DNA of 32,142 bases from Bdellovibrionales bacterium (GCA_020434345.1 JAGRAZ010000016.1:1-32142), one strand, 5' to 3'; positions 9,335-32,088 are shown, counted from the first letter of the stretch. The notes: generated by a model not told the origin, from the letters alone. Program-made: numbers and translations.

Positions 9335-12003
9335 TGAAAAAATACATTGCTATCACTTGTTTATCTGTTTTGACCTTTGTTTCTTCAGGTTGCAAAAAGC
9401 CGTCTGAAACAATGGACTCCTCTTCATGGCAAAGACCTGCAGAACAATCGATTTCTGAAAGTTATGCATTTTATCGATCTTCACACGTTCAAAACACTGC
9501 TTACACCATGCACTTTTCCTTTACACCTGATGGAGACACTTTTACTGCCAAAAATACAATTGAATTTACACTGGATCGTCCTTCTGAAAATCTCACGATT
9601 GATTACAGCGATGGTGTAGTTAAAAAATTTCTTGTAAACGGTGTTGAAGCAAACACTACCTTTAATGGTTATTACCTTTTGTTACCCATTGAACATCTAA
9701 AAACCGGAAAAAATATAGTTACCATTGAATACGTAGGCAATTTTAGCAAGGATGGTTCAGGCCTGTACCGCTTTATTGACCCTGAAGATGGACTTCGATA
9801 CCACTATTCCGACTTTGAACCGTACGATGCGCACCGTTTATTTCCTTGCTTTGATCAACCAGATATCAAAGCAACATACACAGTTACTGTTGATGCACCA
9901 AAAGATTGGGTGGTCATCAGTGCGCAAAGAGAAACAAGTAGAAACACACAAAATAAAAAATTTGATACTTGGACTTTTCCAACCACAAAACCGTTTAGTA
10001 CATACATCTTCTCTTTACATACTGGACCCTATGCAGAAATTGCAATCCAAGATTACAAAGATATTGAGCTTCGTCTTTTTGTTCGTAAATCTTTGGCAAA
10101 ATACGTGAATGCAAAAGATTGGGAATCTTTCACACAGCATGGCTTTGAATTCTTTCAAGCTTATTTTGACTATCCCTACCCTTTTACAAAATATGATCAA
10201 ATTATCGTGCCCGACTTTAACGCTGGCGCCATGGAAAACGTAGGCGCTGTAACTTTTTCAGAGCGTTTTATTTCTCGAGGCAAAAAAACGCACAAAGAAA
10301 GATTCAGACTTGCCAATGTTATTTTGCATGAAATGGCGCATATGTGGTTTGGCAATTTGGTCACCATGAAATGGTGGAACGATCTTTGGCTTAACGAGAG
10401 TTTTGCCACATTTGCAGCCTACGTTGCAAGTGAGAAGCACCCTGATTTCAAAGATGCGTGGAAGCAATTTGCTGGAACAAAAAGTTGGGCCTATGAAACT
10501 GACGACCAAGTCACAACGCACCCCATTGAAGCGCATATCGAGTCAAGTGCTGTAGCCATGACCAATTTTGATGGCATCACGTATGGCAAGGGCGCATCTT
10601 CCCTTCAACAAGTATCTTATCTTATCGGTGATACAGCTTTTCGGGATGGTGTACGTGTGTATTTCAAAAAACATGCGTGGAAAAATACCATCCGCAAAGA
10701 TTTTACCTCAGCACTCGATGAGCAATCCCAACAAAATTTAGACGCGTGGTCAAAAGAGTGGCTACAAACTTCCGGCACAAATACACTTTCAACAACTTAC
10801 ACTTGTGAAAACAATCAAATCGCCACATTTAAGGTGATTCAGTCTGCGCCGAAAGACCACACAACACTACGTTTGCATCGCAATCAAATTGCTTTGCTGG
10901 ATGCAAAATTACAAAATTATAAAACAATCGACACATTTATTGATGGCAAAACCACTTCAATTGAGGCATTGGTTGGACAACCTTGTCCATCACTTGTTCT
11001 TTTGAATGCAAATGACAAGGACTTTGTCAAAGTAGCGCTCGATGAAAAAAGCATAGACTTTTTAGCTATCCATATTTCTGACATTGCTTCAGAAACAACA
11101 CGCGGAAACCTTTGGTTCACATTGTGGGATATGGTGAAAAAGAACCAACTATCCATCGAAAAATATACGTCCATTGTTACAAATCACATTGAAAAAGAAA
11201 AAGACATCAATGTTGCCACGTTCATAGAGGACACTCTTACCGGCGGCGTATACTCTGTTTACTTCCTTCTTCCCCATGAAACTGAAGATCAACAAAATAG
11301 CCGTGATAAAACCATGGCAACACTGAACCAACAGATCTATAAACTTTTTACAACTGCAACACCTTCATCAGATTTTCAAAAACTCTGGTTCAATGGATTT
11401 ATCAACACAAGCCAGACAGTTGAAAACCAAAAGCAAATGGTTGGTTGGCTTCAAGGTAAAGTAAAACTACCTCAAGGGTTTACACTTGATCAAGATCAAC
11501 GTTGGACACTTGTGCAAAAGTTACAAGAACTTGATCACAAACAATATGCAAGTCTCACCGCAAATGAAATCAAACGCGACCCTTCTAGCAAAGGCCAAGA
11601 AGCACTCATTGCTGCAAATGCGAGTGCGGATGACATGAAGAGCAAGAAAGACCTTATTGCAAAATTACTTCAAGACAAACCACTTGATTCGGTTGCCAAA
11701 AAACGTGCGGCAATCAAAGCACTTTTTCCTGCTTCGCAAATTGATTTATTGGGATCGCTTGAGGATGATCTTTATAATTTGATTGTTACAGTTTCAAACA
11801 CACCCGGGCAGGAAATTCTACTAAGTGATGTTACAAGATACATCATTCCACTTACATGCAACAAAGAGGGAGTACATAAGATGGGTCGCTTTATCAATGA
11901 GCATAAAGACCTGCACCCGATTGCGGTGAAGAACTTACGTATTCAGTATCAGGAAAATCAGGATTGTGTTGCAATCAAGGAAACGCAAGAAGCTGCAAAA
12001 TAA
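9335..12003 (+). CDS. pepN: Aminopeptidase N (M1-family zinc metallopeptidase), a lipoprotein.
   Basis: GAMEN motif and HEMAHMWFGN...NESFA (HEXXH-18-E). Lipobox LTFVSSGC, AAGGA RBS. The ORF-track start at 9259 has no RBS and is rejected in favour of ATG at 9335. Confidence 0.9.
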
Positions 12004-12181
12004 CTTCTTTTGAAATATAATTTATTTTACTCGTGATAAAAACCCGATGATTTTTGTGATTTTCAAGGCCGCAGTTTTCGAGGCGTGAAGCGTACTCAAG
12101 TTACGTGAGCAAGCCGAGAAAGCGAGAACGCAGAAAATTGCAAAAAGGGCGGGTTTAAGTTCTAGATACTTATTTATGCAT

Positions 12182-15100
12182 CTACTCTACTCGAGAAATG
12201 CCAATGGTTACATCGAACTGATCAAGCTTCTCTTGTACTATTTTCATGGAAGAAGCTGGTTTTTCAAAACGCAGATGAGATAGCGTTTCACTTTCAATCA
12301 ATCCTTGGTACTTTTCAAACGCCTGTCGCAGATCATCTTGCGTCTGCACATGTAGATGAATATGGTTTTCAACTTCAAGCTCACAATCTTTACGAAATCG
12401 TTGAACACGATTGATAAGCTCACGTGTGAGTCCTTCATTCTGAAGGTCTTCTGTAATTTGATCATCCAATGCAACAACCAAACTTCCAGCGCTGTGACAT
12501 GGATATGAAAAAGACGTAATTGCCTTAAGCTCAACAGTAAAGTCATCTGCCCCAAATGCTTGGTCCATGAGTGTTATTTCTTGGTCATTGATGATTCCTT
12601 CTACTTGTTCCTTTGTAAGATTTGCAACAAGAGATTGAAATTCTTTCATTTTTGATCCAACTTTTTTTCCTACCGATTTGAAATTGGGTTTGACCACCCA
12701 CGACCCAATCTTTTCAGAAGGCAAGAATACAACATCGTGAACATTTAACTCTTCCTGTACGATATGCTTCATAGATTGAAGTGCTTTTTCGTCCTCTTGA
12801 TGAACAACACCAATGTACATTGTAGAAAGTGGTTGCCTGTTTTTTATTTTGAGTTTTTCTCGAAGCTCTCGGCCCAAACCAACTGCCCTTCGAATGATAT
12901 CCATTGCCTGTTCAAGTTCGCTTTCACTCTGGCTAAGGGCCTTTGCTTGAGGATACACTTCAAGGTGCACAGAATCCTTTTGGGTAAACTCATGTTCTGA
13001 TGACAATGACTGGTAAATAAACTCACTGATAAAAGGGATAAATGGTGCTGCAAGCTTTGAAAAAGTAACCAGCACATGAAAAAGGGTTGAATAGGCTTGG
13101 TGTTTGGCAGTATCATTTTCTGATTTCCAAAAGCGTCTTCTTGATCTTCGAATGTACCAATTTGTTAGATCATCAATAAAACTCAAAAGTGGTGGAATGA
13201 CTTTTGAGAGATGAAATCGGTCCATCTCAATACAAATTTCTTGTGTTAGTTTTGCAAGCTTAATCTCAATCCATTGGTCTAATTCATGACTTCTTTCGGA
13301 TGTATAATCCTTTTGAGGATCCCAGCCATCAACACTGGCGTAGGTCGCAAAAAAGGAATATGCATTGTAAAAGGGAAGCAACACTTTTCGTGTCATTTCT
13401 TTCAAGCCCTCTTCGCTAAAACGCAGATCTTCCCCCTGAACAGCACCTGATTGAAGTAGATAGATCCGCAACGTATCAGCGCCATACTGATTTAGAACTT
13501 CAATTGGGTCAGGGTAATTTTGAAGTCGCTTGGACATTTTACGGCCGTCTTCAGCAAGCACGATACCATTGACCACGACATTTTTAAATGCAGGCCCCTT
13601 ATCAAGGGCTGTTGAAAGCACCATCAGTGTATAAAACCAGCCACGTGTTTGATCTAATCCTTCAGCAATAAACTCGGCGGGAAATTTTTTTCCAAAGTCT
13701 TCTTCCGATACTGAAAATGGATAGTGATTTTGTGCATATGGCATAGAACCAGATTCAAACCAGCAATCTAAAATCTCAGGAATGCGTGTAAGCGTGTCGC
13801 CTGTCTTCGGCGAAGTGATTTCTATTTGATCTACAAAATGCTTATGCAAATCGTTAACATCTTTGCCGGATAATTTTTTAAGTTCATCTACGCTTCCAAT
13901 ACAAATGGTTTCACCTGTATCTGCATTTCTCCAAATTGGAAGTGGATTGCCCCAAAAGCGATTTCTAGAAATAGCCCAATCACGGGCATTCTCAAGCCAT
14001 TTGCCAAATCGACCATCGCGCAAGTGTTCTGGAACCCAATGTGTTTGTTGATTGTTTTTAATCAATTGTTCTTTAATTTTGGTCACAGCCACAAACCATG
14101 TGGACACAGGCTTATAGATGAGTGGTGTATCGGATCGGTAACAAAAAGGATAACTGTGTTGAATGGTTTCTTGTTTAAAAAGAAGCTTGTTTTGCTTTAA
14201 ATAATCAATGATAATTTTGTCTGCATCTTTGAAGTATAAACCTTGCGCAATACTACATTCATCTGTGAAGATTCCTTCTTGATCCAAGTGCTCAAGGGGA
14301 TCAATGCCAACTCGTTTAAAAACCTCGAAGTCTTCTTCTCCATAGGGTGCTAAATGAACAATACCTGTACCTGAATCTTCTGTGACATAATCAGCCGCAT
14401 ACACTTGCAATGTTTTTTCAGGCATTTTTCCAATAAAACTTGGAATCATCTGTTTATATTTCAACCCGACAAGTTCTGCGCCTTGAAATGTTTGCACAGT
14501 TTCAATTTTAGATTTTCCAAAAACCTGTGCGACCAAATTTTTAGCAACAATAAAGAACTCATGACTGCCTTCTGGCTTTACTTTTACATACGTAATTTCA
14601 GGATTAACAGCAGCCGCATGGTTTGCAGGTAAAGTCCAAGGTGTAGTTGTCCAAACTAGGAGAGAAACAGTTGGATCACTCTCAAGAGTAAGTTTCACAG
14701 TCACCGCTGGATCCTGCACATCTTGATAGTTTAGATTGGCTTCAAAATTAGAAAGTGGTGTTGTGATTCTTGTTGAATAAGGAAGTACTTTCTTATCCTC
14801 ATAAATAAGCCCTTTATCCCATAACTTTTTAAAGACAGACCAGACTGATTCCATGAACGATACATCCATGGTTTTGTAATCATTTTCAAAATCAATCCAA
14901 CGGCCCATGCGCTCAACAGTTTTTTCCCACTCTTGGGTGTAACGAAGCACAATCGACCTACATTCTTCATTGAATCGATCAACACCAAAGGCCAAAATAT
15001 CTTTGCGACCTTTCAGCTCTAGTCGTTTTTCAGTTTCAAATTCGATTGGAAGCCCATGACAATCCCATCCGAATCTTCTTTGAATTTTTTTACCTCGCAT

Positions 15101-21332: not shown

Positions 21333-21791
21333 TTACAAACCAATATCTTCGTTCCATAAATCAGGATGCTTTGAGATAAAGTCTCGCATCAGGCTTTTGC
21401 ATTCTTCATCATCAAGGTTAAGTAACTTGGTTCCTTTATGTTCAAACCAATCTTCTTCCCCCATAAATGTTTCATTTTCGCCAATCACAACCAAGGGGAT
21501 TTGGAACAAAAGTGAAGTTCCCGTACACATTGCACAAGGGCTCAATGTAGAGACCAAAATCAGCTCATTCCAATCACGACGCCGACCTGCTGCTCGAATA
21601 CATTGTGTTTCAGCATGGGCCGTTGGGTCATTATGTTGGACACGTTGATTATGCCCCCTTGCGATGACTTCTCCGTTGGGCCTAACCAGCACGGATCCGA
21701 TGGGAATACCCCCCTCGGATAAACTTTTTTTGGCCTGCTCAACAGCAAGCAGTAGCCAAGGATAGGCTTGCTTTTTTGTGATTTTTTGCAT
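21333..21791 (-). CDS. CDA-fold zinc deaminase resembling yeast Fcy1-type cytosine deaminase (a guanine deaminase is the alternative).
   Basis: HAETQCI ... SPCAMCTG zinc ligands. The C-terminus ECKSLMRDFISKHPDLWNEDIGL closely parallels the Fcy1 C-terminus. The ORF-track extension to 21959 would read through the tRNA gene and is rejected. Confidence 0.7.
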   Translation of the reverse strand: MQKITKKQAYPWLLLAVEQAKKSLSEGGIPIGSVLVRPNGEVIARGHNQRVQHNDPTAHAETQCIRAAGRRRDWNELILVSTLSPCAMCTGTSLLFQIPLVVIGENETFMGEEDWFEHKGTKLLNLDDEECKSLMRDFISKHPDLWNEDIGL

Positions 21792-21856: not shown

Positions 21857-21946
21857 GGAGGATTGGCCGAGTGGTTGATGGCGGCGGTCTTGAAAACCGT
21901 TGTACCTTAACGGGTACCGGGGGTTCGAATCCCTCATCCTCCGCCA
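21857..21946 (+). tRNA. tRNA-Ser(UGA), 90 nt, long variable arm, encoded CCA.
   Basis: Acceptor GGAGGAT/ATCCTCC, D-arm GCCGAGTGGTTGATGGC, anticodon loop CTTGAAA, long variable arm, T-arm CCGGGGGTTCGAATCCC, discriminator G and CCA. Confidence 0.9.
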
Positions 21947-22058
21947 TCTTCTCATCCAAGCAAATCCAAAAAACTCCAAAAACAAAAATAAATCCAAAGA
22001 TTTAAGCTATTTAGTTGTCCATACACGACCTAGAAAAACCCATTGCATCCAGGTTCAT

Positions 22059-22116
22059 ATACGGGTAACTCTAAGGGTAACTTATGAAATCACCCATTCT
22101 ACCAAGAAAGTTACCC
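22059..22116. repeat. Cluster of GGGTAAC motifs: two direct (ATACGGGTAACT-CTAA-GGGTAAC) plus one inverted (GTTACCCGC), immediately upstream of the int fragment. It is a candidate integrase arm-type or terminal-repeat site.
   Basis: Seen directly. The 12-mer ATACGGGTAACT and GCGGGTAAC recur at 31788-31810. Confidence 0.5.
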
Positions 22117-22121
22117 GCACA

Positions 22122-22307
22122 ATGCCCTTAACCGCCCTACAGGTAAAGTCTGCCAAACCCAAAGCCAAAAACTACAAGCTCACCGATGAAAAAGGGTTGC
22201 TATTGGAAGTAACATCCCCGCCATTTCTTCGTAACTTATTCTTAGCTTACACTTGGTTTCTTCTTCGATTCTCGCGTATGGGGATTCGAACTTTGTTCGT
22301 CTGTTGA
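22122..22307 (+). pseudogene. int: N-terminal fragment of a P4-like tyrosine integrase (DUF4102 arm-binding domain), decayed after ~33 codons.
   Basis: MPLTALQVKSAKPKAKNYKLTDEKGLLLEVTSP matches the LTDxxIKxAKPxxKxYKLxDGxGLxLxV N-terminus of P4-family integrases. The downstream sequence is non-homologous, with a stop at 22307. Confidence 0.7.
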
Positions 22308-22740
22308 TTGTGCGCTTACGCGCATGGCTCATCCTCCGCCATCTACTAACACTTAAGACTTCGGGCTTAAGGGTTAACCTTTAAACCAACCGTCAAACCC
22401 TAAGCCCTAATAGTAATCCTTTTTATTCCTAAAGCTGGTCCTGCCCGGACAGATAGTTTACAGTTTTTACCGGAGGCATGGTTTACAGTTTCAAAACAAA
22501 CGGTTCTTCTGCCGATTTTGTCGCTTTCGCTCCATGGCGCATCCACCTGGGTTTCGAATAATCTCGGACCGGAAAACAAGGAAATTAAATGTAAAAGTTA
22601 GAACTTGATCTGATAATAATAAACTTTCCCCGCTGGATAACTTGTCAGATTTAGTTCATGCTTTTACAAGTAATTTCTAACTTTACTTAAAATCGAATGT
22701 GATCCTTTGTAACGATGCAATACTTCGCTGATATACATCT

Positions 22741-23010
22741 TTATGAGATGGATCGTCTATCAGTATTTGTATATGGTTTCGAATATCTTGATGTTGTTGG
22801 CAGAACATCTTCACAATTTTTTTTATCATGATTTGGATTTTGTTGGTAGGGTGGTATCAATATGGTTTCTTCAATTTCAAAATGTGGTTGCATCACTTCT
22901 GCCCATTCTTTCATGAAAGCAATGAGTTCAGTTTCTAAGTCAAGGTTCTCATCCAATGCCTTGAAAATACGTTTTACTTGAACCAGCCCATGGTGATGTT
23001 CAACAGACAA
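22741..23010 (-). CDS. Hemerythrin-like (HHE cation-binding, RIC/DnrN-like) small protein. It is probably frameshifted at an A8 tract; the +1 frame continues a hemerythrin-like C-terminus (..QQHQDIRNHIQILIDDPSHKDVYQ..).
   Basis: MKEWAEVMQPHFEIEETILIP resembles the H..EE..L.P hemerythrin motif. A T8/A8 homopolymer lies at 22817-22824, and the downstream alternative frame has a His-rich helix-like sequence. Confidence 0.4.
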   Translation of the reverse strand: MSVEHHHGLVQVKRIFKALDENLDLETELIAFMKEWAEVMQPHFEIEETILIPPYQQNPNHDKKNCEDVLPTTSRYSKPYTNTDRRSIS

Positions 23011-23033
23011 AGACCTTAAAGCGTCTGAGCGCT

Positions 23034-23315
23034 TTATTTTACTAAACTATAAAATTCAATGTAAAATTCAACCTCGCCAAGAGGCTTGATTTTATGTTCT
23101 TGCTCAGGTGCTACTATTCCCTTTTTCGTTGGTGTTAATACATAAGACTGGTTGCTTTCAAGGATGGTATATTCTAATTTCCCTTGTTGAACGCAAATGA
23201 CCGCCCAAGTATTTGCTTTGGTATCATGCATTTTTAACAAGCGATCTGGCACTGTCTTTTCGTTAAAAAGGTCGGATTGATGATATTTTTTCACATCTGC
23301 TGGTAATGTCCTCAT
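23034..23315 (-). CDS. YeaR-like DUF1971 protein (small cupin-like protein of NsrR/nitrate regulons).
   Basis: YHQSDLFNEKTVPDRLLKMHDTKANTWAVICVQQGKLEY and the C-terminal VEFYIEFY parallel the E. coli YeaR pattern. Its start ATGA-overlaps the upstream gene. Confidence 0.55.
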   Translation of the reverse strand: MRTLPADVKKYHQSDLFNEKTVPDRLLKMHDTKANTWAVICVQQGKLEYTILESNQSYVLTPTKKGIVAPEQEHKIKPLGEVEFYIEFYSLVK

Positions 23316-23701
23316 TGTCGCTCCTTTTGTCCTATTTCAACACTTAATTTTAAACTGGATGCAATCATTTCACTTCGTTCAATATACATTGTTGCCACTT
23401 CTTCTGTATGTATTTCTCTGACCGTTTGCGCAAATAAACTAAGCCATCGGTCAAATAGTTGAAGATCAAACGTTGGTAGGTCTTTGTGTTTTTGGTGCGG
23501 ATTGCCTTTATATTTCCTACTGCGCAACATCAATGAGGACCAAAAAGCATACATTCTTTGCAAATGTGTCTTCCACGCTTCGGAAGTCGTTCCAATCACA
23601 CCATCGAAAACAGGACCAAGTGCATGGTCTTGTCTCACCTTTATATAAAAGGCATCCACCAGTTCTTTGATGCTGCTTTCTGTGATTTGATTTCTTTTCA
23701 T
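23312..23701 (-). CDS. Truncated (2/2) haemoglobin.
   Basis: F.G......W..H...MY.FW......YKGNP...H..L.....F..WL.LF pattern of trHb groups II/III. 129 aa from MKRNQITE. Confidence 0.7.
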   Translation of the reverse strand: MKRNQITESSIKELVDAFYIKVRQDHALGPVFDGVIGTTSEAWKTHLQRMYAFWSSLMLRSRKYKGNPHQKHKDLPTFDLQLFDRWLSLFAQTVREIHTEEVATMYIERSEMIASSLKLSVEIGQKERQ

Positions 23702-24117
23702 ACAAGCCTTCTTTGGAGGTAAAAAGCTGCACAAGCGATGATCATTACTTTGGATATTTCTAGGGCAACATAGTATTTATGAAGCATACTTGGTGTGGGC
23801 TTCTGCCCTTGCGCAATCAAAGCAATTCGGTGATCAAGTTTGGGAAGAAGACCGAAGGTATCCACGCAAAGAATAACCAATAGGACAATAGCTACAACAA
23901 AAATCCACGGCACTCTAAGAAACATGGCACTTCCCAAAAAAAACAAAACAAACCCCCACTCCACCTTATTAAAAAAATGAAAGGTCGCTTGTCCAATTTC
24001 TAACGCTACAGGAAGTGTTAAGCCAGGTGCTTTGAATTTTATTGGAGTAGCAAGAAACGACACCCCCAATATAAATCCCATATACAACCAGTACATATTT
24101 AATACATATAGTTTCAT
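23698..24117 (-). CDS. Small 4-TM membrane protein, DUF4149-like (tentative).
   Basis: Hydrophobic segments and an F.ATP..F.APGL..P.A...GQ..F pattern. It lies directly downstream of qNor. Confidence 0.35.
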   Translation of the reverse strand: MKLYVLNMYWLYMGFILGVSFLATPIKFKAPGLTLPVALEIGQATFHFFNKVEWGFVLFFLGSAMFLRVPWIFVVAIVLLVILCVDTFGLLPKLDHRIALIAQGQKPTPSMLHKYYVALEISKVMIIACAAFYLQRRLV

Positions 24118-24232
24118 TGCTACTCCAAAGATGCATAATATGCATATACAATACATATTAAAACTGCAAGCTTTACTCATTCAAAATCTGCGATATTTAA
24201 AACGTAAACATGTACCAAAACGGTATCATTTT

Positions 24233-26515
24233 TTATTGAACCTTAGGGTAATCTGCGTCAGATAAATCTTGATTGGGCTTCAAAGAAAACCCTGTTTTTA
24301 AACCAACAACAAAAATGGCAAGTGTTACCGTTCCCACAGCAAATATGGTGTCTCCTACCACGCGTAACCAACGAAAGAGCTCCATGATGTCGGTCTGGTT
24401 AAATTCTGCCGATCTTGCATACCACATGCCATGCTCCACACTTGCAAGCGTTTGGAGCAAACCCACGGGAAGAAGGCTCAAAAGTGCCATCGCTGCAAGC
24501 CCAATATTGATAGACCAAAAGGAAAAGCCTATCATGCCGTCTTTCCACTGTCTCTTGGCTGCCAAACCTTTGAGGCAAAATAACATTAGACCAATACCCA
24601 AGTTTCCATAGACCCCAAACAGCGCTGTGTGCCCATGAAGAGGCGTGGTATTAAGACCCTGCATATAGTACAGCGCAATCGGTGGATTGATCAAGAATCC
24701 AAATATACCAGCACCAACCAAATTCCAGAAAGCTACCGCAATAAAGAAGTAGATCGGCCACTTATACGCTTTCACCCAACTGACAGCGCGACTTAAGGTG
24801 AGGTTATGGTAAGCCTCAAAACCAATGAGAACAAGTGGAACAACTTCTAGTGCGCTAAATGATGCTCCCAATGCCAATACTGCTGTTGGTGTTCCTGTAA
24901 AATAAAGGTGATGAAAGGTACCAATGATTCCTCCACTTAAAAAGATAACGGTCGAGAAAAGTACTGCGGCAGTTGCAACGGCAGTTCGTATCAGGCCCAT
25001 ACGCACAAAAAGAAAGGCAATGACTACAGTGGCAAATACTTCAAAGAAACCTTCTACCCATAAATGAACAACCCACCATCTCCAATATTCTGCAATGGCC
25101 AAATTGGTTTGACGACCCCACATAAGACCCGCTGCATAGAAAAGTGCAATGGCAGCAGAAGAAATCATGAAAACGGTCAGCAAATGACGGCTTTCTTTTT
25201 GCTGTTTGAACGCAGGAAGTATAGCGCGGGTCATCAAGCCTAACCATAGGAAAAGCCCTACCAAAAGAAATATTTGCCAGAATCTGCCAAGCTCGACATA
25301 TTCATATCCTTGGTGTCCAAACCAAAAATTTTCTGCCAGCCCGAGCTTCTGCATCACGCCAAACCATTGACCAGCCAGAGATCCCACAACGATAATAAGG
25401 AGGGCAATAAAAAGAAAGTTGACGCCCGCACGTTGAAATTTGGGTTCGTATCCAGAAACGGCTGGCGCAATAAAGAGCCCTGTCGCCAACCATGAGGTCG
25501 CAATCCAGAAAATAGCAAGTTGAATATGCCATGTTCTGCTTACAGAATAAGGTAGCCATTCAGCCAGAGGAAAACCATAAAACCCATTTCCTTCCACACC
25601 ATAATGTGCCGTTACGACTCCAAGAAGAACTTGAACAAGAATCAATGCTGCAACCACCCAAAAGTATTTTAACGTTGCAGCCATAGATGGCGTAGGGTTG
25701 AGTGCCAAGAGCGGATCTTTGTCAGGAAGTTCCTCTTCAGAGACCTCTTCTTCTTTTCGTGATGCATAATAAAAAGCAAGAAGTCCAATGCCTCCAATAA
25801 GTAAGATTACACTAAAACCTGTCCAAATTAGAAGCGCACCTGTTGGTTTATTGTCTACAAGTTCTTCTGGAGGCCAATTGTTGGTATAAGTTACGTCACT
25901 TCCAGGTCGATTGGTTACACACGCCCATGATGTCCAAAAAAAGAATTGATTGAGTTTTTCCATACGAGTTGGATCTTTGATGGTATCTTGAGGTATGGCA
26001 TAGGCTTCTCTTAATTCCTCCATGGCCGGATCATTCATGAATAGAGACTGATAATGCTTACCAACCTCTTTAATGGCCTCGGCTCGAATAGCTGAAATGG
26101 TAAGAGTTTGGGTCTCAGAGTTGTAGGTGTTGGTACGAAGTTCTTTTTTTAGACGAATTTTTAACGCAGCCTGTTGTTCTTCTCCGAGTGCGTCAAAGCT
26201 CAAGGCATATTCCTGTTGGCTCCAGGTATTTAAAATATACTCAGCTTCGCGGTGCAACCAGTCTGCTGACCAGTCGGGAGCAATATAGGCACCATGTCCC
26301 CAAACAGAACCAATGTTATGTCCCCCCATCGACTGCCAAATATTTTGACCATCTTTGATATCCTGCCCTTCAAACAAAACATTGCCATCTAAGACAACTT
26401 GTTTTGGAACAGGAGGAGCAGATCGATAAATTTCCAATCCATAGTATCCAAGGACTGCAAACGAGCCCACCATAACAAAGAGGAAAGAAAACCATAATTT
26501 TCTGTATTGCTTCAC
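24233..26515 (-). CDS. norB: Quinol-dependent nitric oxide reductase (qNor, single-subunit NorB/NorZ).
   Basis: 760 aa. It combines an N-terminal periplasmic extension with the 12-TM haem-copper-oxidase core carrying multiple conserved His (HHLYF, HG H). The length matches qNor rather than cNorB. Confidence 0.9.
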   Translation of the reverse strand: MKQYRKLWFSFLFVMVGSFAVLGYYGLEIYRSAPPVPKQVVLDGNVLFEGQDIKDGQNIWQSMGGHNIGSVWGHGAYIAPDWSADWLHREAEYILNTWSQQEYALSFDALGEEQQAALKIRLKKELRTNTYNSETQTLTISAIRAEAIKEVGKHYQSLFMNDPAMEELREAYAIPQDTIKDPTRMEKLNQFFFWTSWACVTNRPGSDVTYTNNWPPEELVDNKPTGALLIWTGFSVILLIGGIGLLAFYYASRKEEEVSEEELPDKDPLLALNPTPSMAATLKYFWVVAALILVQVLLGVVTAHYGVEGNGFYGFPLAEWLPYSVSRTWHIQLAIFWIATSWLATGLFIAPAVSGYEPKFQRAGVNFLFIALLIIVVGSLAGQWFGVMQKLGLAENFWFGHQGYEYVELGRFWQIFLLVGLFLWLGLMTRAILPAFKQQKESRHLLTVFMISSAAIALFYAAGLMWGRQTNLAIAEYWRWWVVHLWVEGFFEVFATVVIAFLFVRMGLIRTAVATAAVLFSTVIFLSGGIIGTFHHLYFTGTPTAVLALGASFSALEVVPLVLIGFEAYHNLTLSRAVSWVKAYKWPIYFFIAVAFWNLVGAGIFGFLINPPIALYYMQGLNTTPLHGHTALFGVYGNLGIGLMLFCLKGLAAKRQWKDGMIGFSFWSINIGLAAMALLSLLPVGLLQTLASVEHGMWYARSAEFNQTDIMELFRWLRVVGDTIFAVGTVTLAIFVVGLKTGFSLKPNQDLSDADYPKVQ

Positions 26516-26574
26516 GACACTCCACCTACCTATTGCAATGCATTTGGTTCATTAAATACACGACATATATTTTG

Positions 26575-26597
26575 AATGCATATTTTGAATATGCAAT
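26575..26597. promoter_or_regulatory. Candidate Rrf2/NsrR operator, the imperfect palindrome AATGCATATT-TTG-AATATGCAAT, in the norB/nsrR divergent promoter region. Further ATGCA-type half-sites flank it (TTGCAATGCATTT at 26533-26545).
   Basis: The 10-3-10 inverted repeat has 1 mismatch and is AT-rich with ATGCAT cores like known NsrR boxes. It does not fit the E. coli 11-1-11 spacing exactly. Confidence 0.35.
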
Positions 26598-26652
26598 ATA
26601 TATACTTATTTACAGATTTGTATATATTAATTCATTGTCGAATCAAGGATTT

Positions 26653-27060
26653 ATGAAAATTACCAAATTTACAGATTATGCTTTACGAACACTTATGTTT
26701 CTTGCATCCAATCAAAACACAACCAAACTCCATACATCCAAACAAATTGCAGCTTTTCATCATATCTCCTATCACCACATGGGCAAAATCGTACACAAGC
26801 TCTCTACTCTTGGATATATAGAAAGCATCAAAGGGAAAAATGGAGGTATTCTCCTCAAAAAACACCCAGCCGATATTGATCTAAAAACTCTGTTTTTGGT
26901 TTTAGAAAATGACTTAAATATTGTGGAATGTTTTGATGCGAAAACAAACACCTGCAAAATATACAAAAACTGTGGTCTAAAAAAGATTTTGAATGAATCT
27001 TTGGGTGCATTCATAAACACATTGGGAAAATATACACTGAAGGACACTTTGCTGAAGTAA
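26653..27060 (+). CDS. nsrR: Rrf2-family [Fe-S] transcriptional repressor, NsrR-like NO sensor.
   Basis: N-terminal wHTH MKITKFTDYALRTLMFLA and a C-x7-C-x5-C cluster (CFDAKTNTCKIYKNC). It lies between qNor and nirK. Confidence 0.8.
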   Translation: MKITKFTDYALRTLMFLASNQNTTKLHTSKQIAAFHHISYHHMGKIVHKLSTLGYIESIKGKNGGILLKKHPADIDLKTLFLVLENDLNIVECFDAKTNTCKIYKNCGLKKILNESLGAFINTLGKYTLKDTLLK

Positions 27061-27114
27061 AAAGTGCCTCATGCGTCTACTATATCCCAACTGTACAAAA
27101 AAGAGAGGGAGACA

Positions 27115-28536
27115 ATGAAAAAATTATTTTGTTTAATGTTGGGGCTGTCAATGGTTGGTTGTACACAGAGCAACCAAAACAATCAAAGTCAAAAAGAAGC
27201 TGTGATTAAAGGAGAGGAGGTTGCTATTTTAACCGATGCGCCTCAGGTTCCTCCTGCAATCACACGTAAACACGCCACCAAAGTAATTGTCAATTTAGAA
27301 ACCTCTGAGCTGAAAATGTCTCTTGCAGATGGTGTTGAATATACTTTTTGGACCTTTGGTGGAAAGGTGCCAGGGAAATTTATCCGGGTTCGTGAAGGTG
27401 ATTTGGTAGAATTTCATCTCCACAACCATCCAGACAGTAAAATGCCTCATAATATTGATCTGCACGCGGTGACCGGTCCAGGTGGTGGTGCTGTATCTTC
27501 TTTCACTGCGCCAGGACATAGCTCCACGTTTTCATTTCGTGCGTTAAATCCAGGCTTGTATGTTTATCATTGTGCAACAGCACCTGTAGGTATGCATATT
27601 GCGAACGGAATGTATGGGCTCATTCTGGTCGAGCCAAAAGAGGGTTTGCCGAAAGTAGATCGAGAGTATTATGTCATGCAAAGTGAGTTTTATACCAAGG
27701 GTGCCTTTGGTGACCAAGGGCACCAGCCTTTCAGTATGGAAAAAGCTTTAGAAGAAAATCCAGATTATGTTGTGTTTAACGGTGCAGTTGATGCCATTTC
27801 TGGTGAAAAATCACTTCCAGCACAAACTGGCGAAACAATTCGTTTGTATGTTGGTAACGGTGGTCCGAATCTTATATCTTCGTTTCACGTTATTGGTGAG
27901 ATCTTTGACAAAGTTCACCCAGAAGGAAGCCTAAGTACGACGAACAAGGATGTTCAAACGACACTCGTTCCAGCAGGTGGGTCAGCTGTGGTGGAATTTG
28001 AAGTGGATACTTCAGGTACTTATATTCTTGTAGATCACTCTATTTTTCGTGCGTTCAATAAAGGTGCTTTGGGTATGATCGAAGTTACTGGAAAAGATGA
28101 TAAAAACGTTTTTTCAGGCAAACTTGAAGACAAGGTATATCATCCTGAGGGCAGCACCATCCAAAATATCGACGAAGATCCAGCTCCAAAAGTTGTTGCG
28201 CAAAACAGAGCAGAACGTTTGGAGTTTGGGAAGCGAATCTATGACCAAAACTGTAAAGCTTGTCACCAGGCAGAAGGTAAAGGCTTGGCAACTGCGTTTC
28301 CTCCTCTTGCATCGTCAGACTACTTGAATGCTGATAAACAAAGAGCCATCAAAGTGATTCTGGAGGGTTTGGAAGGCCCTATCACCGTCAACGGTAAAGT
28401 ATTTGACAGTGTGATGCCAGCCCAACGACTTACAGATGAAGACATCGCAAACGTATTAACCTATGTATATAACAACTGGGGCAATTCTGGCCAAAATGTA
28501 AGCCCAGAGGATGTTAAGGCAGTGCGAGAAAAATGA
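27115..28536 (+). CDS. nirK: Copper-containing nitrite reductase NirK with a fused C-terminal cytochrome c domain (class III), a lipoprotein.
   Basis: [13 protein letters not shown] (T2Cu/T1Cu His), [20 protein letters not shown] (T1Cu Cys-His-Met), and a C-terminal CKACH haem-c motif. Lipobox LSMVGC, GAGAGGGAG RBS. The ORF-track start at 27064 is rejected. Confidence 0.9.
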
Positions 28537-29312
28537 GAAACCTGTTGATTGTCTTTTTACTTATGATTTGGGGTGTTTGTTTTGCAACAAGCACCCCATT
28601 ATCGGTGATGCTTCCTCCAGGTCAATATCGACCACTGTTAAAAGTTACAGAAGATTCATCAAAGCGAATAAAGGTAGAATCGTTTAAGATGGATAAGTAT
28701 CCAGTTACCAATAAAGATTTTGTATCGTTTGTAAAAAATAATCCAAAATGGAAAAAATCAAATGTTCCAAGTTTATTTGCGGGCAGTGAGTATCTCAAAT
28801 TATGGAAAGACGACGTAACCCTTGGTAAAAAGGCACCTGAAGATGCTCCTGTTGTTTTTATTTCGTGGTTTGCAGCCAAAGCTTATTGCGAATCAAAAGG
28901 AAAAACACTTCCCACAGAAGCGCAGTGGGAATATGCTGCCGCAGCCAGCCCAACAAAAAAATTTGCCGCTTATGAAGATGCCTCTTTTCAAAAGAAAATT
29001 TTAGAGTGGTATGGAAACCCCACCAGTCACCCTTTAGGTGCTGTCGGTAAAAATGATGCAAATATATATGGCATATATGATTTGCACGAACGTGTTTGGG
29101 AATGGGTTTTAGATTTCAACAATGGTTTGGTCACAGGTGAATCTAGGGGAGATCGAACCTTAGATCAAAAAATGTTCTGTGGTTCTGGTGCGTCTGGTTC
29201 TGTGGATCCTGGCGATTATGCTACATTTATGCGCTATGCTTTTCGGAGCAGTTTAAAAGCAAATTATACCGTATCTAATCTTGGTTTCCGGTGTGCAAAG
29301 GAGTTAGAATGA
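28533..29312 (+). CDS. nirV: NirV, a formylglycine-generating-enzyme (SUMF1/FGE) domain protein commonly encoded downstream of nirK.
   Basis: Signal peptide, [11 protein letters not shown] and W/G-rich FGE-sulfatase-domain blocks. Its start ATGA-overlaps the nirK stop. Confidence 0.75.
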
Positions 29313-29875
29313 ATTACTACATATTTGGTTTTTTTTTGGTTTTATTTGTTACAGGAGGAATTGCGACTGCAGAAACGCATAAACTCCCTGAAAATTCCAT
29401 GTATCACCTTGATTCCAAATGGAAAACCGAAGATGGAAACGTAATATCTCTGTCGGACTTGCAAGGTGATACGCATATAATGACAATGGTTTTTACCAGT
29501 TGTGAGTACGCATGCCCTATGATTATCAGTGACATTCATAAGATTACCAAAGGACTTCCTAAAAAAATCCAAAAAAAAGTACGCATTTCTCTTTTTTCTT
29601 TTGATCCGGAAAAAGACACACCAGGTGTCCTTAAAAAATTTAGTACCAAGCATATGCTAGGCAGCAACTGGAACATGTACACCAGTGACGAAAGTACAGT
29701 AAGGGAGCTGGCAGCTGTTCTTGGGGTGAAATATAAAAAAATGGAAAATGGCATGTTTGGCCATTCCAATGTGATCAGTATAGTAGATTCCAATGGTGTT
29801 ATTGTGCACCAACAAAATGGGCTATATGCAGATCCTGCACCGGCCATTCATAAAATAAAAGAGCAATTTGAATGA
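29309..29875 (+). CDS. SCO1/SenC-family copper chaperone (thioredoxin fold).
   Basis: CEYACP (CxxxCP) plus a downstream conserved His (FGHSNVISIVD) and an N-terminal TM anchor. AAGGAG RBS, start overlapping the nirV stop. Confidence 0.75.
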   Translation: MNYYIFGFFLVLFVTGGIATAETHKLPENSMYHLDSKWKTEDGNVISLSDLQGDTHIMTMVFTSCEYACPMIISDIHKITKGLPKKIQKKVRISLFSFDPEKDTPGVLKKFSTKHMLGSNWNMYTSDESTVRELAAVLGVKYKKMENGMFGHSNVISIVDSNGVIVHQQNGLYADPAPAIHKIKEQFE

Positions 29876-31044
29876 TCCAAAGAAAAACACATCCGTTTTG
29901 GTCAGTAGGCTTTAGACCTTTCTTCTTTCTTGCGATAGTACAAACCCTTGTCGCTAGCTGTTGTTGGACACTGCACTATCTTGGGTGGCTTGATATTGAG
30001 ATACCCGTAGGTTCAAACTTTGTGTGGCATGCGGCAACCATGTTGTATGGGTTTGTAATCAGTGTTTTTATAGGCTTTTTACTAACAGCCACCGCAAAAT
30101 GGACAAATACACCCCCGCTTTCAGGAAACAAACTTAAAGCTTTTTTCATATTCTTTGCAATTGCCCAGGTGATGTGGTTTTTTCCGATGGTTTTTCCTAA
30201 ATTTGTTTACCAAGCATTTTTTTTGGCTGTGTATATATTTTTACCCTTATTTTTAATCAGGTTATTTCTACGAACGAAACACTATCGAAATATGTTTATC
30301 GTTATTCCCGTTGGATTGATGTGCATTGGTGCAGTGTTTATGTTTGCTCAAAACGTTGCTACAGCTAATCTATGGGTAGGGCTTACGCTGGGCGCTATGC
30401 GTGCCATGCTAGTGGTCATTTCAGGGAGGGTATTGCCCTTTTTCTCTAAAATGGCATTGGACATCAATGTACAAGCGGTGAACCCGAAAGCGGAAGTTTT
30501 TCTTTTACTGACAATGATGGCGCTTATCTTTGAGCCACTGTACCAGTATTTGGATCCATATGGATCTGCGTTATGGCTTGTGCTTACCACATTTGCATTG
30601 GTATTAAACTTATATAGACTATGGAAATGGCCCATACGTAAGTCTTTTTCCATTCCTATCTTGTCCATTCTTTTTATCGGATACCTATGGATACCAATAC
30701 ATTTCGCACTAAATATCGCATCACACTTACATTTCGTATCACAGCTGGGACAACCTTCAGTGCATGCGCTTACTTATGGTGCAATGGGCATTATGATTGT
30801 CGCAATGATAAGTCGAGTATCCCTTGGACACACAGGCAGAAAAATTCAAGCAACAACCATGATGAAAACGGCATATGGTATCATCGTTTTTGGCGCATTT
30901 TCCCGTGTGTTTGGTCCCATCTTATTTCCTGCAGGTTATATCAGCTGGATAGGTCTTACTGGACTTATGTGGTTTGTTTCTTTTGCACTACTTGCAATCG
31001 AAATATTCCCAATGCTACTTAAACCAAGACCAGACGAAATGTAG
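29872..31044 (+). CDS. nnrS: NnrS-family haem-copper membrane protein (NO-stress response).
   Basis: 390 aa, ~12 TM segments and conserved His-rich helices. The position after nirK-nirV-sco is typical for nnrS. Confidence 0.8.
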   Translation: MIQRKTHPFWSVGFRPFFFLAIVQTLVASCCWTLHYLGWLDIEIPVGSNFVWHAATMLYGFVISVFIGFLLTATAKWTNTPPLSGNKLKAFFIFFAIAQVMWFFPMVFPKFVYQAFFLAVYIFLPLFLIRLFLRTKHYRNMFIVIPVGLMCIGAVFMFAQNVATANLWVGLTLGAMRAMLVVISGRVLPFFSKMALDINVQAVNPKAEVFLLLTMMALIFEPLYQYLDPYGSALWLVLTTFALVLNLYRLWKWPIRKSFSIPILSILFIGYLWIPIHFALNIASHLHFVSQLGQPSVHALTYGAMGIMIVAMISRVSLGHTGRKIQATTMMKTAYGIIVFGAFSRVFGPILFPAGYISWIGLTGLMWFVSFALLAIEIFPMLLKPRPDEM

Positions 31045-31172
31045 GTCAGTCAAAGGTATAACTCAAAAGGGAAATTTAACCAAATTCTAGGGTTTTTACT
31101 AGAAATTCATATGTTTCCAACAAACGACCTTCTACATTCCTACTATCTTCAGCAGATAGTAAAAAAACCAAG

Positions 31173-31213
31173 AAAAACCCTGCATACATATCTATGCGTT
31201 ATGCAGGTTTTGG
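31173..31213. terminator. Bidirectional intrinsic terminator between convergent nnrS and the HiPIP gene.
   Basis: AAAAA-CCTGCATA-(13-nt loop)-TATGCAGG-TTTT forms an 8-bp stem with A-run and T-run flanks. It overlaps the HiPIP stop codon. Confidence 0.5.
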
Positions 31214-31573
31214 TGCCCAAGATTTACACCAGCCATCTGCGTGAACCATCCCTTTTTTGGGTAGCAATTGACAAGGTCCGTACGATTTTCCATCTTCCGC
31301 GATATAAAACATACAATTATGGCAATATTGGTCCATACCTTTGACACCACTTTTTTCAACGCGCATTTCTGAAGATGCAGAAGAAGCATCTGCTACATAT
31401 GCCAAATTCTTGGCCATCGGATCATCTTCAGACACGAAAGTAACGCTGCTAGATGTATCTGGTTCCTTTGGTTTTTCCTCTACTTCAGGGTGTTTTTTAT
31501 CATTGGTACACGCTGCAATTGCAACGATTGGCAGCGCGATAAAGGTTTTTTGTAAAAATTCTCTTCTATTCAT
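31199..31573 (-). CDS. High-potential iron-sulfur protein (HiPIP) with a Tat signal.
   Basis: RREFLQK twin-arginine motif, then CHNC..Y ... GPCQLL ... GWCKSW four-Cys HiPIP signature. 124 aa. Confidence 0.8.
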   Translation of the reverse strand: MNRREFLQKTFIALPIVAIAACTNDKKHPEVEEKPKEPDTSSSVTFVSEDDPMAKNLAYVADASSASSEMRVEKSGVKGMDQYCHNCMFYIAEDGKSYGPCQLLPKKGMVHADGWCKSWAPKPA

Positions 31574-31632
31574 TTGTCTACTCCCAAAATCTTTATAAGG
31601 TTAATCTATCCAAGGATCAATCAATATCTGTT

Positions 31633-31683
31633 TTTGGAGCTGTACCAGATAACATATTTCTTGTTATCTGGTACAGCTCCAAA
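31633..31683. repeat. Perfect inverted repeat with 22-bp arms and a 7-nt loop (TTTGGAGCTGTACCAGATAACA-TATTTCT-TGTTATCTGGTACAGCTCCAAA), upstream of the HiPIP gene.
   Basis: Seen directly. It has no T-run on either side in terminator orientation and lies inside a 515-bp non-coding region. Confidence 0.6.
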
Positions 31684-31787
31684 CTTATACTCTTACACCT
31701 TTATTCTTACTACCCTTGAGATTTCATCTTTTCCTCAATCTGGTATGATGGGCTTCAACAGGTTGGGGCAGATCGAGGATCTAAGAG

Positions 31788-31810
31788 ATACGGGTAACTT
31801 TGCGGGTAAC
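31788..31810. repeat. Second GGGTAAC cluster (ATACGGGTAACT-TTG-CGGGTAAC), partner of the 22059-22116 cluster.
   Basis: It shares the exact 12-mer ATACGGGTAACT and the GCGGGTAAC motif with the cluster next to the int fragment. A CTAAG motif is also shared. Confidence 0.5.
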
Positions 31811-32088
31811 CTGTTTTAAGCGAAGTCTATATATCAATAATAACAAATAGATATATACCGAGTTAGAAAGCCTCATCCCGCCAGTCTTCGCTTCTTCAAA
31901 GCTACGACTGGCAGGCCTATGATCTACTGTTCAATTTTCTACATAACGTGTTCATTCTATTCTACGAAGACTAGTCCGGCATAGCCCTTAAGGCGACGAC
32001 GGACATGAACTCAACCCAGTATTCATGTATACCGGTCGCCTTGTCTACAAGAATTCCGATGAAGACCAAAATCTGATACATAAAACCC

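Follow-up and report, generated by a model that had tools for sequence, protein, structure and literature searches.

A tRNA-Ser(UGA) integration hotspot with a decayed P4-like integrase and a small nitrite- and NO-reduction module in a Bdellovibrionales contig

Denitrification islands and the accretion of islands at tRNA genes are both known (PMC11526790, PMC7694296, PMC11537424). In KplE1 at argW (PMC2951348) and in the Escherichia coli pheV islands (PMC11537424) the integrase gene lies directly after the tRNA 3′ end, and the interval from the core to the integrase start holds P′ arm sites that overlap the expected integrase promoter region; for KplE1, the P′ sites of IntS overlap the intS promoter beside argW (PMC2951348). 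Such islands have direct repeats of the tRNA end, their occupancy differs from strain to strain, and the elements accumulate in tandem and decay. In the 66.5-kb island of Methylophaga nitratireducenticrescens (PMC11526790) and the nitrate-respiration/denitrification element of Thermus thermophilus (PMC7694296), respiratory N-oxide reductase genes, their regulators and NnrS are clustered in a strain-variable segment. Here we describe the locus downstream of a tRNA-Ser(UGA) gene in a Bdellovibrionales bacterium, where integrase remnants and repeats of the tRNA end accompany genes for nitrite and nitric oxide (NO) reduction. The stretch analysed, called the window below, is a complete 32,142-bp contig (JAGRAZ010000016.1) of the NCBI metagenome-assembled genome (MAG) GCA_020434345.1.

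The locus shares the above traits with both groups and belongs to the ordinary run of decayed tRNA-linked islands or hotspots, being of the P4-like integrase type and having a small denitrification/NO module. It differs from KplE1 and the pheV islands in its putative arm motif, GGGTAAC, in its target, tRNA-Ser(UGA) in Bdellovibrionota, in an integrase cut to 33 codons, and in having no excisionase or transfer genes. Unlike the Methylophaga and Thermus islands it is small (~9 kb), has nirK and qNor only, without nar or nos and without conjugation genes, and its mobility is read from att-type junctions only. Three marks of a tRNA island are present (adjacency to the tRNA, tRNA-derived repeats and absence from the same site in relatives), and two are not (an intact integrase and atypical composition).

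Tandem integration is the best reading of the structure. We lean, with moderate confidence, towards a tRNA-Ser(UGA) 3′ end used repeatedly by islands with P4-like integrases and GGGTAAC arms, whose integrations have stacked and eroded. Four layers would follow the tRNA: the newest element, reduced to a ~275-bp scar (scar A) with a P′ arm and 33 integrase codons; the old tRNA end, displaced and accompanied by one or two earlier mini-scars (units x and S); the nor and nir operons and a HiPIP gene, in the cargo position of the oldest, integrase-less island; and an attR-type junction (a GGGTAAC pair, 62 bp, then a degenerate core) abutting a conserved SDR gene. A model that had seen the DNA without database searches (the sequence-only reading) had proposed an integrase-mobilised island at this tRNA. 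Its tRNA-Ser hotspot, with integrase remnants and with nir/nor in the variable segment, is upheld; the status of nir/nor as cargo is a matter of position. The anatomy was observed as follows.

21857..21946, plus strand, tRNA-Ser(UGA), intact (ARAGORN; Rfam tRNA, 58.3 bits)
21933..21949, tRNA-Ser 3′ end including 3 downstream bases, att core of the hotspot (17-bp repeat)
21950..22121, plus strand, putative P′ arm of scar A, the newest element; GGGTAAC direct at 22063 and 22075 and inverted at 22110, right before the integrase start
22122..22220, plus strand, integrase pseudogene, P4-like (Arm-DNA-bind_3) tyrosine integrase (Pfam, tblastn)
22213..22223, plus strand, displaced original tRNA 3′ end CATCC-CCGCCA, putative attR core of scar A, start of the alignment to L003 and L004
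22224..22344, plus strand, native-like tRNA-downstream flank (units x and S) with the perfect core copy 22328-22344, colinear with L003 12712-12833 and the L004 flank
22445..22491, plus strand, two 22-nt direct repeats 25 bp apart, CCGGAsrsATrGTTTACAGTTT, containing GTTTACAGTTT (repeat search)
22503..22547, plus strand, second and more degenerate unit S with core-like CATCCACC (flank alignments)
31788..31810, plus strand, probable P-arm-type GGGTAAC pair ATACGGGTAACTTTGCGGGTAAC (pair motif, repeat search)
31871..31889, plus strand, degenerate third core CCTCATCC--CGCCAGTCTTC, right boundary of the variable segment
32090..32142, plus strand, start of the SDR gene, conserved chromosomal flank, cut by the contig end (blastn to L004 12367-12394)

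Insertion at the tRNA 3′ end is visible directly: the gene ends at 21946 and element DNA runs from 21947. In an Rfam scan of the window the tRNA was the sole match, and the x-S unit corresponds to no known RNA family. The open reading frame (ORF) from 22122 reads MPLTALQVKSAKPKAKNYKLTDEKGLLLEVTSP and runs to 22307; its integrase portion, with the N-terminus MPLTALQVKSAKPK, is only ~33 codons long, and the remainder is non-integrase. The Arm-DNA-bind_3 match is weak (E 0.0013; 19.3 bits vs a cut-off of 27; 31 residues), and tblastn against full-length P4-like integrases gave 60% identity over 30 residues and, in another, 54% over 26. P4-like integrases consist of arm-binding, SAM-like and catalytic domains, of which the latter two are deleted here, and no second integrase trace or catalytic domain was found in the window by Pfam or tblastn. 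Judged by these matches the fragment is a pseudogene of the P4-like (Arm-DNA-bind_3/DUF4102) family, as the sequence-only reading had it, a remnant rather than the functional integrase of an active island. Searches of a protein database and IMG/VR did not find a close full-length integrase; the 33-aa query was too short for a large protein database, and the 61-aa ORF had no match there. An exact 17-mer from the integrase start, also tried in IMG/VR, gave two matches, both within unrelated phage genes, and was discarded.

The 17-bp tRNA end CTCATCCTCCGCCATCT occurs exactly at 21933-21949 and again at 22328-22344, as the sequence-only reading had noticed; two matches were seen in 0 of 100 shuffles. 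There are four further copies in all: the perfect 17-mer at 22328, CATCC-CCGCCA at 22213, and degenerate ones at ~22525 and 31871. The copies are increasingly degenerate with distance from the tRNA, an order that fits newer elements inserting at the tRNA and pushing older ones outward.

The DNA from 22213 to 22344 aligns end to end with the tRNA 3′ end and flank of L003, a related locus (score 82 vs a null maximum of 43), and with those of a second, L004 (60 vs 51). The alignment begins at CATCC-CCGCCA, overlapping integrase codons 31-33, crosses the ~70-bp unit x and then the ~50-bp unit S, which ends in the perfect 17-bp copy; that copy sits, then, in a tRNA-proximal unit that L003 and L004 carry in degenerate form. 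Because 22213-22344 aligns with the relatives' tRNA end and native flank, scar A would be only ~275 bp (21947-22223), and because the perfect copy belongs to the conserved tRNA-proximal unit, the integrase fragment would have arrived separately and later than the nir/nor block, whose integrase it would not be. The sequence-only reading had suggested two tandem events, the first reduced to a ~400-bp scar. We retain the tandem, with a shorter scar that is not bounded by the 22328 copy. A deletion would have fused the integrase to the element's own attR core, perhaps at a CATCC..CCG microhomology, and removed all cargo of scar A.

The DNA that follows the 22328 and 22525 cores showed no homology to scar A's P′ arm, and the nir/nor block has its left boundary somewhere within 22224-22740. 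The two 22-nt repeats at 22445-22491 lie 101-147 bp past the 22328-22344 core, an offset that resembles that of the GGGTAAC sites after the tRNA core; although they share no homology with the scar A P′ arm, they might serve another integrase as arm sites. Two metagenome contigs that are 100% identical to the window (L166 and L167, from the independent assemblies ERZ28656119 and ERZ27309356) both stop at 22330, 2 nt into the perfect core. These endpoints are the sole hint of excision that was seen, and could represent a population variant that diverges at the core, e.g. one in which the 395 bp between the perfect copies are lost.

Hotspot behaviour was observed directly in relatives. The left-flank genes for IleRS, 2OG oxygenase, DHDPS and SPFH are syntenic in five related loci, all of which have the tRNA-Ser(UGA), and the DNA after the tRNA is different in each. 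In none of the five (which include L003, L004, L379 and L380) do nir/nor genes follow tRNA-Ser, so the site lacks the block there as expected of a tRNA island; these relatives are other species or genera, in which loss is possible. L003 (MAG HKST-UBA01) has a short scar, followed by C13 peptidase, PIG-L, SDR and SerRS genes, the SDR lying 2.6 kb from the tRNA. In L004 the tRNA is inverted relative to SPFH and SDR, and the SDR is 313 bp from the tRNA. L380 has MscS after the tRNA.

The most telling comparison is that of L379 with L003. The two are 98.6% identical over 12.7 kb, and homology ends exactly at the CCA end of the tRNA. Next in L379 comes a remnant of a P′ arm and integrase start that matches window 22025-22170 at 89.6% identity; it has lost one repeat, and its integrase carries a frameshift and breaks off after ~17 codons. 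More than 8 kb of unrelated genes follow. For host coding DNA the identity is only 65-75% (blastn), and the 89.6% of the remnant therefore makes the element family closer than its hosts. By sequence, L379 and L003 form an occupied/empty pair for the same element family, a pair that shows the tRNA-Ser site to be a live hotspot of the clade. The absence of nir/nor after the tRNA in relatives fits the sequence-only reading; no mobile or second copy of the island was found.

Two side observations concern these loci. In L004, at 11936-12230, ~50 bp consisting of the 5′ part of the tRNA and DNA upstream of it are duplicated in direct orientation (~11990-12050 and ~12180-12230); the duplication and inversion suggest a rearrangement at the same hotspot. 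The cargo of the L379 island (L379 12706-20891, from JAWKOA010000003.1) encodes GTP cyclohydrolase II, a thymidylate-kinase-like protein, OMP decarboxylase, NTP_transf_5 and an MFS transporter, and the right end of that island is outside the DNA examined.

The GGGTAAC repeats connect the two ends of the segment. The heptamer occurs 8 times in the window vs 2.1 expected, and 5 of the 8 are at the two ends. The 21-nt pair motif ACGGGTAACTN4GGGTAAC occurs only at 22061-22081 and 31790-31810, and never in shuffles, which bears out the repeat clusters reported by the sequence-only reading just inside both ends. Left and right arms share ATACGGGTAACT. The integrase family was found by scanning IMG/VR viral contigs for GGGTAAC-N5-GGGTAAC. 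Most matches of that scan were by chance; two lay directly upstream of integrases with N-termini like that of the fragment. A recurring layout emerged, in which a tRNA or tmRNA-like 3′ end is followed after ~115-130 bp by between one and three direct GGGTAAC and then by a single inverted copy 8-40 bp before the integrase ATG (L299/L247, L338/L191, L349, L353 at tRNA-Met, and L306/L307 at tRNA-Val). The window has the same layout, with the tRNA end at 21946, sites at 22063, 22075 and 22110 (inverted), and the ATG at 22122. The attP-like locus L299/L247 has an extra site, CGGGTAACTTTGCG, 82 nt before the end of its tmRNA-like core, which belongs to no complete gene; the 13-mer GGGTAACTTTGCG is common to this locus and the right end of the window, where it lies 79-91 nt before the core end. 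Site positions and conservation, compared over six independent integrase loci and one attP-like locus, are consistent with an arm-site layout. Because related integrases have the same layout and the attP-like locus shares the 13-mer, the GGGTAAC copies probably serve the integrase as arm-type sites, with the P′ arm at the left end and the P arm at the right, by analogy with the IntS P′ sites of KplE1 (PMC2951348).

At the right end the degenerate third core is present as the sequence-only reading described it, at 31871-31889. Its Smith-Waterman score of 24 is that of the best non-trivial match in the window; this outermost of the tRNA-derived flanking repeats is borderline alone and is made credible by its position 62 bp past the right-hand GGGTAAC pair. 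An arm-site pair followed by a core copy is an attR-type layout, and from its sequence we take it as genuine. The third core lies 200 bp from the SDR start, as compared with 313 bp from tRNA to SDR in L004. The final 28 bases of the window match the SDR start of L004 (blastn), and thus SDR-SerRS, whose synteny is seen in L003 and L004, would be the conserved right flank. No homology was found between the right flank of the third core and the relatives' flanks. The flanking genes agree with the sequence-only reading on both sides: deaminase and SPFH on the left, SDR on the right.

From its position between these ends we infer that the nir/nor block arrived as island cargo. Several observations weigh against this. 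The block has the composition of its flank: GC is 0.402 vs 0.4005 and GC3 0.352 vs 0.341, the relative synonymous codon usage (RSCU) distance of 0.166 is inside the 0.139-0.193 of equal-size flank blocks, and the tetranucleotide deviation is slight only, so the compositional break that the sequence-only reading would lead one to expect is not there. The nir/nor element's own P′ arm and integrase are entirely missing from the left end, which leaves position to carry the case for cargo. Neither an intact version nor another copy of the island came to light, nor did a close full-length integrase: the best match of qNor in JGI metagenomes is 75% identical, with no second island copy; no tRNA was found beside the qNor/nirK clusters checked in metagenomes; and an exact-protein search for near-identical contigs returned short same-strain contigs only, with no alternative junctions. 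Simple age decay does not explain why the right-hand arm sites are perfect yet the adjacent core is degenerate, and among 30 shuffled 32-kb sequences one scored as high as the third core. Misjoins at the tRNA are possible in the relatives, which are MAG contigs; and if x-S is orthologous in the three genomes, the nir/nor element would predate their split and the relatives would have lost it.

The sister MAG (the genome of L003) has nirK-nirV-sco-nnrS on another contig (L290, 4653-10878), where the operon, of ortholog-level similarity, adjoins cNorCBQD (cytochrome-c-dependent NorCB with NorQ/NorD) and not qNor. Its proteins are 73% (NirK), 70% (NirV), 53% (Sco) and 42% (NnrS) identical to those of the window, and nirK-sco is 68.7% identical in nucleotides; core genes are 57-90% identical in protein and 65-75% in nucleotides. 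The divergence of NirK and NirV equals the core-gene level, which also counts against a cargo origin in that vertical descent fits as well as an old or within-clade transfer. The nitrite-reductase and NO-reductase parts have been combined independently within the clade, since the sister operon is paired with cNor and that of the window with qNor. The module itself would belong to the clade's gene pool, and any transfer would be old or between relatives, because NirK and NirV are as similar to the sister's as core proteins are.

Such facts suit another history, one that we hold to be rather unlikely, in which the nor and nir genes are old chromosomal residents or arrived without an integrase, the junctions are footprints of transient elements, possibly displaced by inversion, and the relatives lost or relocated the cluster. 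It would account for the native-like composition and codon usage and the core-level divergence of NirK and NirV. The closest NnrS homologues (39-43% identical) are from Bdellovibrionota-type MAGs, in contexts mostly unrelated except for the sister nir operon, and NirK with a C-terminal cytochrome c is already known in Bdellovibrio (PMC4770552), both as expected of resident genes; so is the native-like x-S flank between tRNA and cluster, and L004 shows that inversion of the tRNA-x-S block can occur. Resident genes do not, however, explain an attR-type junction on the far side, which, barring further rearrangements, implies an element spanning the cluster. The cluster is at this locus in 0 of the 5 relatives, and the sister's nir operon is elsewhere, with a different Nor type. 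A simpler geometry, with a single 10-kb element from 21947 to 31889 that held the integrase fragment, both GGGTAAC arms and nir/nor and whose integrase was truncated later, has in its favour that both arms share ATACGGGTAACT and the site type and that the ends look like one attL and one attR of the family. We think it improbable: the displaced tRNA end, ~120 bp of native flank (22213-22344) and the second S unit would be internal to that element, an arrangement that integration at a tRNA cannot yield. Very improbable indeed is coincidence at the right end, which would leave only a ~400-bp integrase scar as real and unlinked to nir/nor. One shuffled window in 30 did match the score of the third copy, but the 21-nt pair motif, absent from all shuffles, is present twice in the window, the right-hand pair shares its 13-mer and spacing with an independent attP-like locus, and the best core-like match of the window falls 62 bp past that pair.

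The genes of the block and their assignments are listed below. Pfam and NCBIfam were used throughout, and gene calls on an identical contig (L163) concur for the NO-reductase operon.

22741..26515, minus strand, NO-reductase operon
22741-23010, minus strand, hemerythrin-like, just under the Pfam cut-off
23034-23315, minus strand, DUF1971/YeaR-like (DUF1971 confirmed by Pfam/NCBIfam)
23312-23701, minus strand, globin-like, just under the Pfam cut-off
23698-24117, minus strand, membrane protein, family not assigned (no Pfam match)
24233-26515, minus strand, qNor (NorB_cytochrome_c-like and COX1)
26653..31044, plus strand, nitrite-reductase operon: Rrf2 (NsrR-like) regulator, NirK with fused cytochrome c, NirV, Sco, NnrS
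27064-28536, plus strand, ORF of NirK with fused cytochrome c, probable start 27116 (TIGR02376)
31199..31573, minus strand, HiPIP (Pfam HIPIP, E 1.4e-17)

The qNor assignment rests on PF22085 (E 3e-73) and PF00115 (E 2e-60) in a single 760-aa ORF, and that of NirK on TIGR02376 (359 bits vs a cut-off of 296) with a cytochrome c domain at 389-470. NirV-like FGE-sulfatase, Sco and NnrS were confirmed by Pfam and NCBIfam. The regulator passes the Rrf2 superfamily cut-off only: NsrR model NF008240 gives 97.5 bits vs a cut-off of 182, level with RirA, and from its family the protein may act in an NsrR-like manner. HiPIP is a possible electron carrier. Every ORF in 22345-31894 was assigned to nir/nor-related families or to none, and no transfer genes (relaxase, coupling protein, type IV secretion) were found among these ORFs by Pfam/NCBIfam. 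These results largely agree with the gene content given by the sequence-only reading, namely in qNor, NirK with cytochrome c, NirV-like, Sco, NnrS, HiPIP, DUF1971 and an Rrf2 regulator; its NsrR falls short of the family cut-off and its globin and hemerythrin of theirs. DUF4149, its proposal for the 139/160-aa membrane protein, was rejected for want of a Pfam match.

The order nirK(cytochrome c)-nirV-sco(-nnrS), with nor nearby, is shared with Bdellovibrio and many Bacteroidota contigs (PMC4770552; L083, L095, L123, L131, L133, L290). L083 further resembles the window in having nirK-nirV-sco and qNor, the latter 75% identical to the window's, on opposite strands. Loci of this type differ from the window in that no tRNA was detected in the DNA examined, in which integrases were not searched for; the sister MAG differs in its nir operon being paired with cNorCBQD. 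Elsewhere, in a marine Bdellovibrionaceae MAG (PAHM01000069.1) and metagenome contigs (L292-L294, 9417-21179), an Rrf2 regulator and an NnrS 39% identical to that of the window adjoin a tyrosine integrase, an HTH_17 excisionase-like gene, a relaxase, a NikA-like gene and TraC. In this other member of the phylum, then, NO-response genes lie next to a conjugative or mobilisable element.

Some non-coding features were also seen. The divergent region between qNor and Rrf2-nirK has an inverted repeat AATGCATAT-N5-ATATGCAAT at 26575-26597, complementary at 8 of 9 positions, which the Rrf2 (NsrR-like) regulator may use as its operator. A direct repeat related to it, ATTTTGAATG(C/A)AT, is found at 26569 and 26986. 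Between the HiPIP start and the right-hand GGGTAAC pair, at 31633-31683, lies an inverted repeat (TTTGGAGCTGTACCAGATAACA / TGTTATCTGGTACAGCTCCAAA) whose 22-nt arms match perfectly around a 7-nt loop, with no T-run after it; it could act as operator or terminator, or as an accessory site in recombination. The DNA left of the tRNA is also variable. In the window, 21333-21791 encodes a cytidine/deoxycytidylate-type deaminase on the opposite strand, while a Tag-like adenine glycosylase lies between SPFH and the tRNA in all four relatives (L003 10901-12290, L004 10883-11608, L380 10929-11663), to which L003 and L379 add an NTase toxin-antitoxin-like pair.

As to mechanism, we infer the following order of events for the stacked islands. 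An island of the GGGTAAC integrase family, carrying both divergent operons, would have integrated at the tRNA-Ser core or its relic; later arrivals and deletions would have stripped its integrase and fixed the block, which, being integrase-less, would now be immobile by itself. Alternatively, entry could have been by integration into the relic core at 22328, which shares CCA-TCT with the element-derived tRNA end, unlike the relatives' native flanks. No sequence like a P′ arm follows 22344 or 22547, and entry at the tRNA core and entry at the relic core are therefore indistinguishable. In the cell, an Rrf2/NsrR-like repressor would release both divergent operons on NO. NirK with its fused cytochrome c would reduce nitrite to NO, and qNor would reduce NO to N2O; NirV and Sco would serve copper-site maturation, and NnrS and the globin-like, DUF1971 and hemerythrin-like proteins would buffer NO stress.

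More generally, and as a doubtful conjecture, small islands with GGGTAAC arms and P4-like integrases specific for tRNA-Ser(UGA) might move nirK, qNor and other cargo among predatory Bdellovibrionota; arrivals would use the tRNA and relic att copies, and modules would pile up and become fixed on integrase decay. The understanding of genomic islands or of denitrification is unchanged, tRNA islands being a well-known route for such genes. Two by-products, the GGGTAAC arm-site signature and the L379/L003 occupied/empty pair, could be used to find more islands. The locus itself is a checkable example of how partial denitrification, from nitrite to N2O, may be distributed among uncultured Bdellovibrio-like bacteria.

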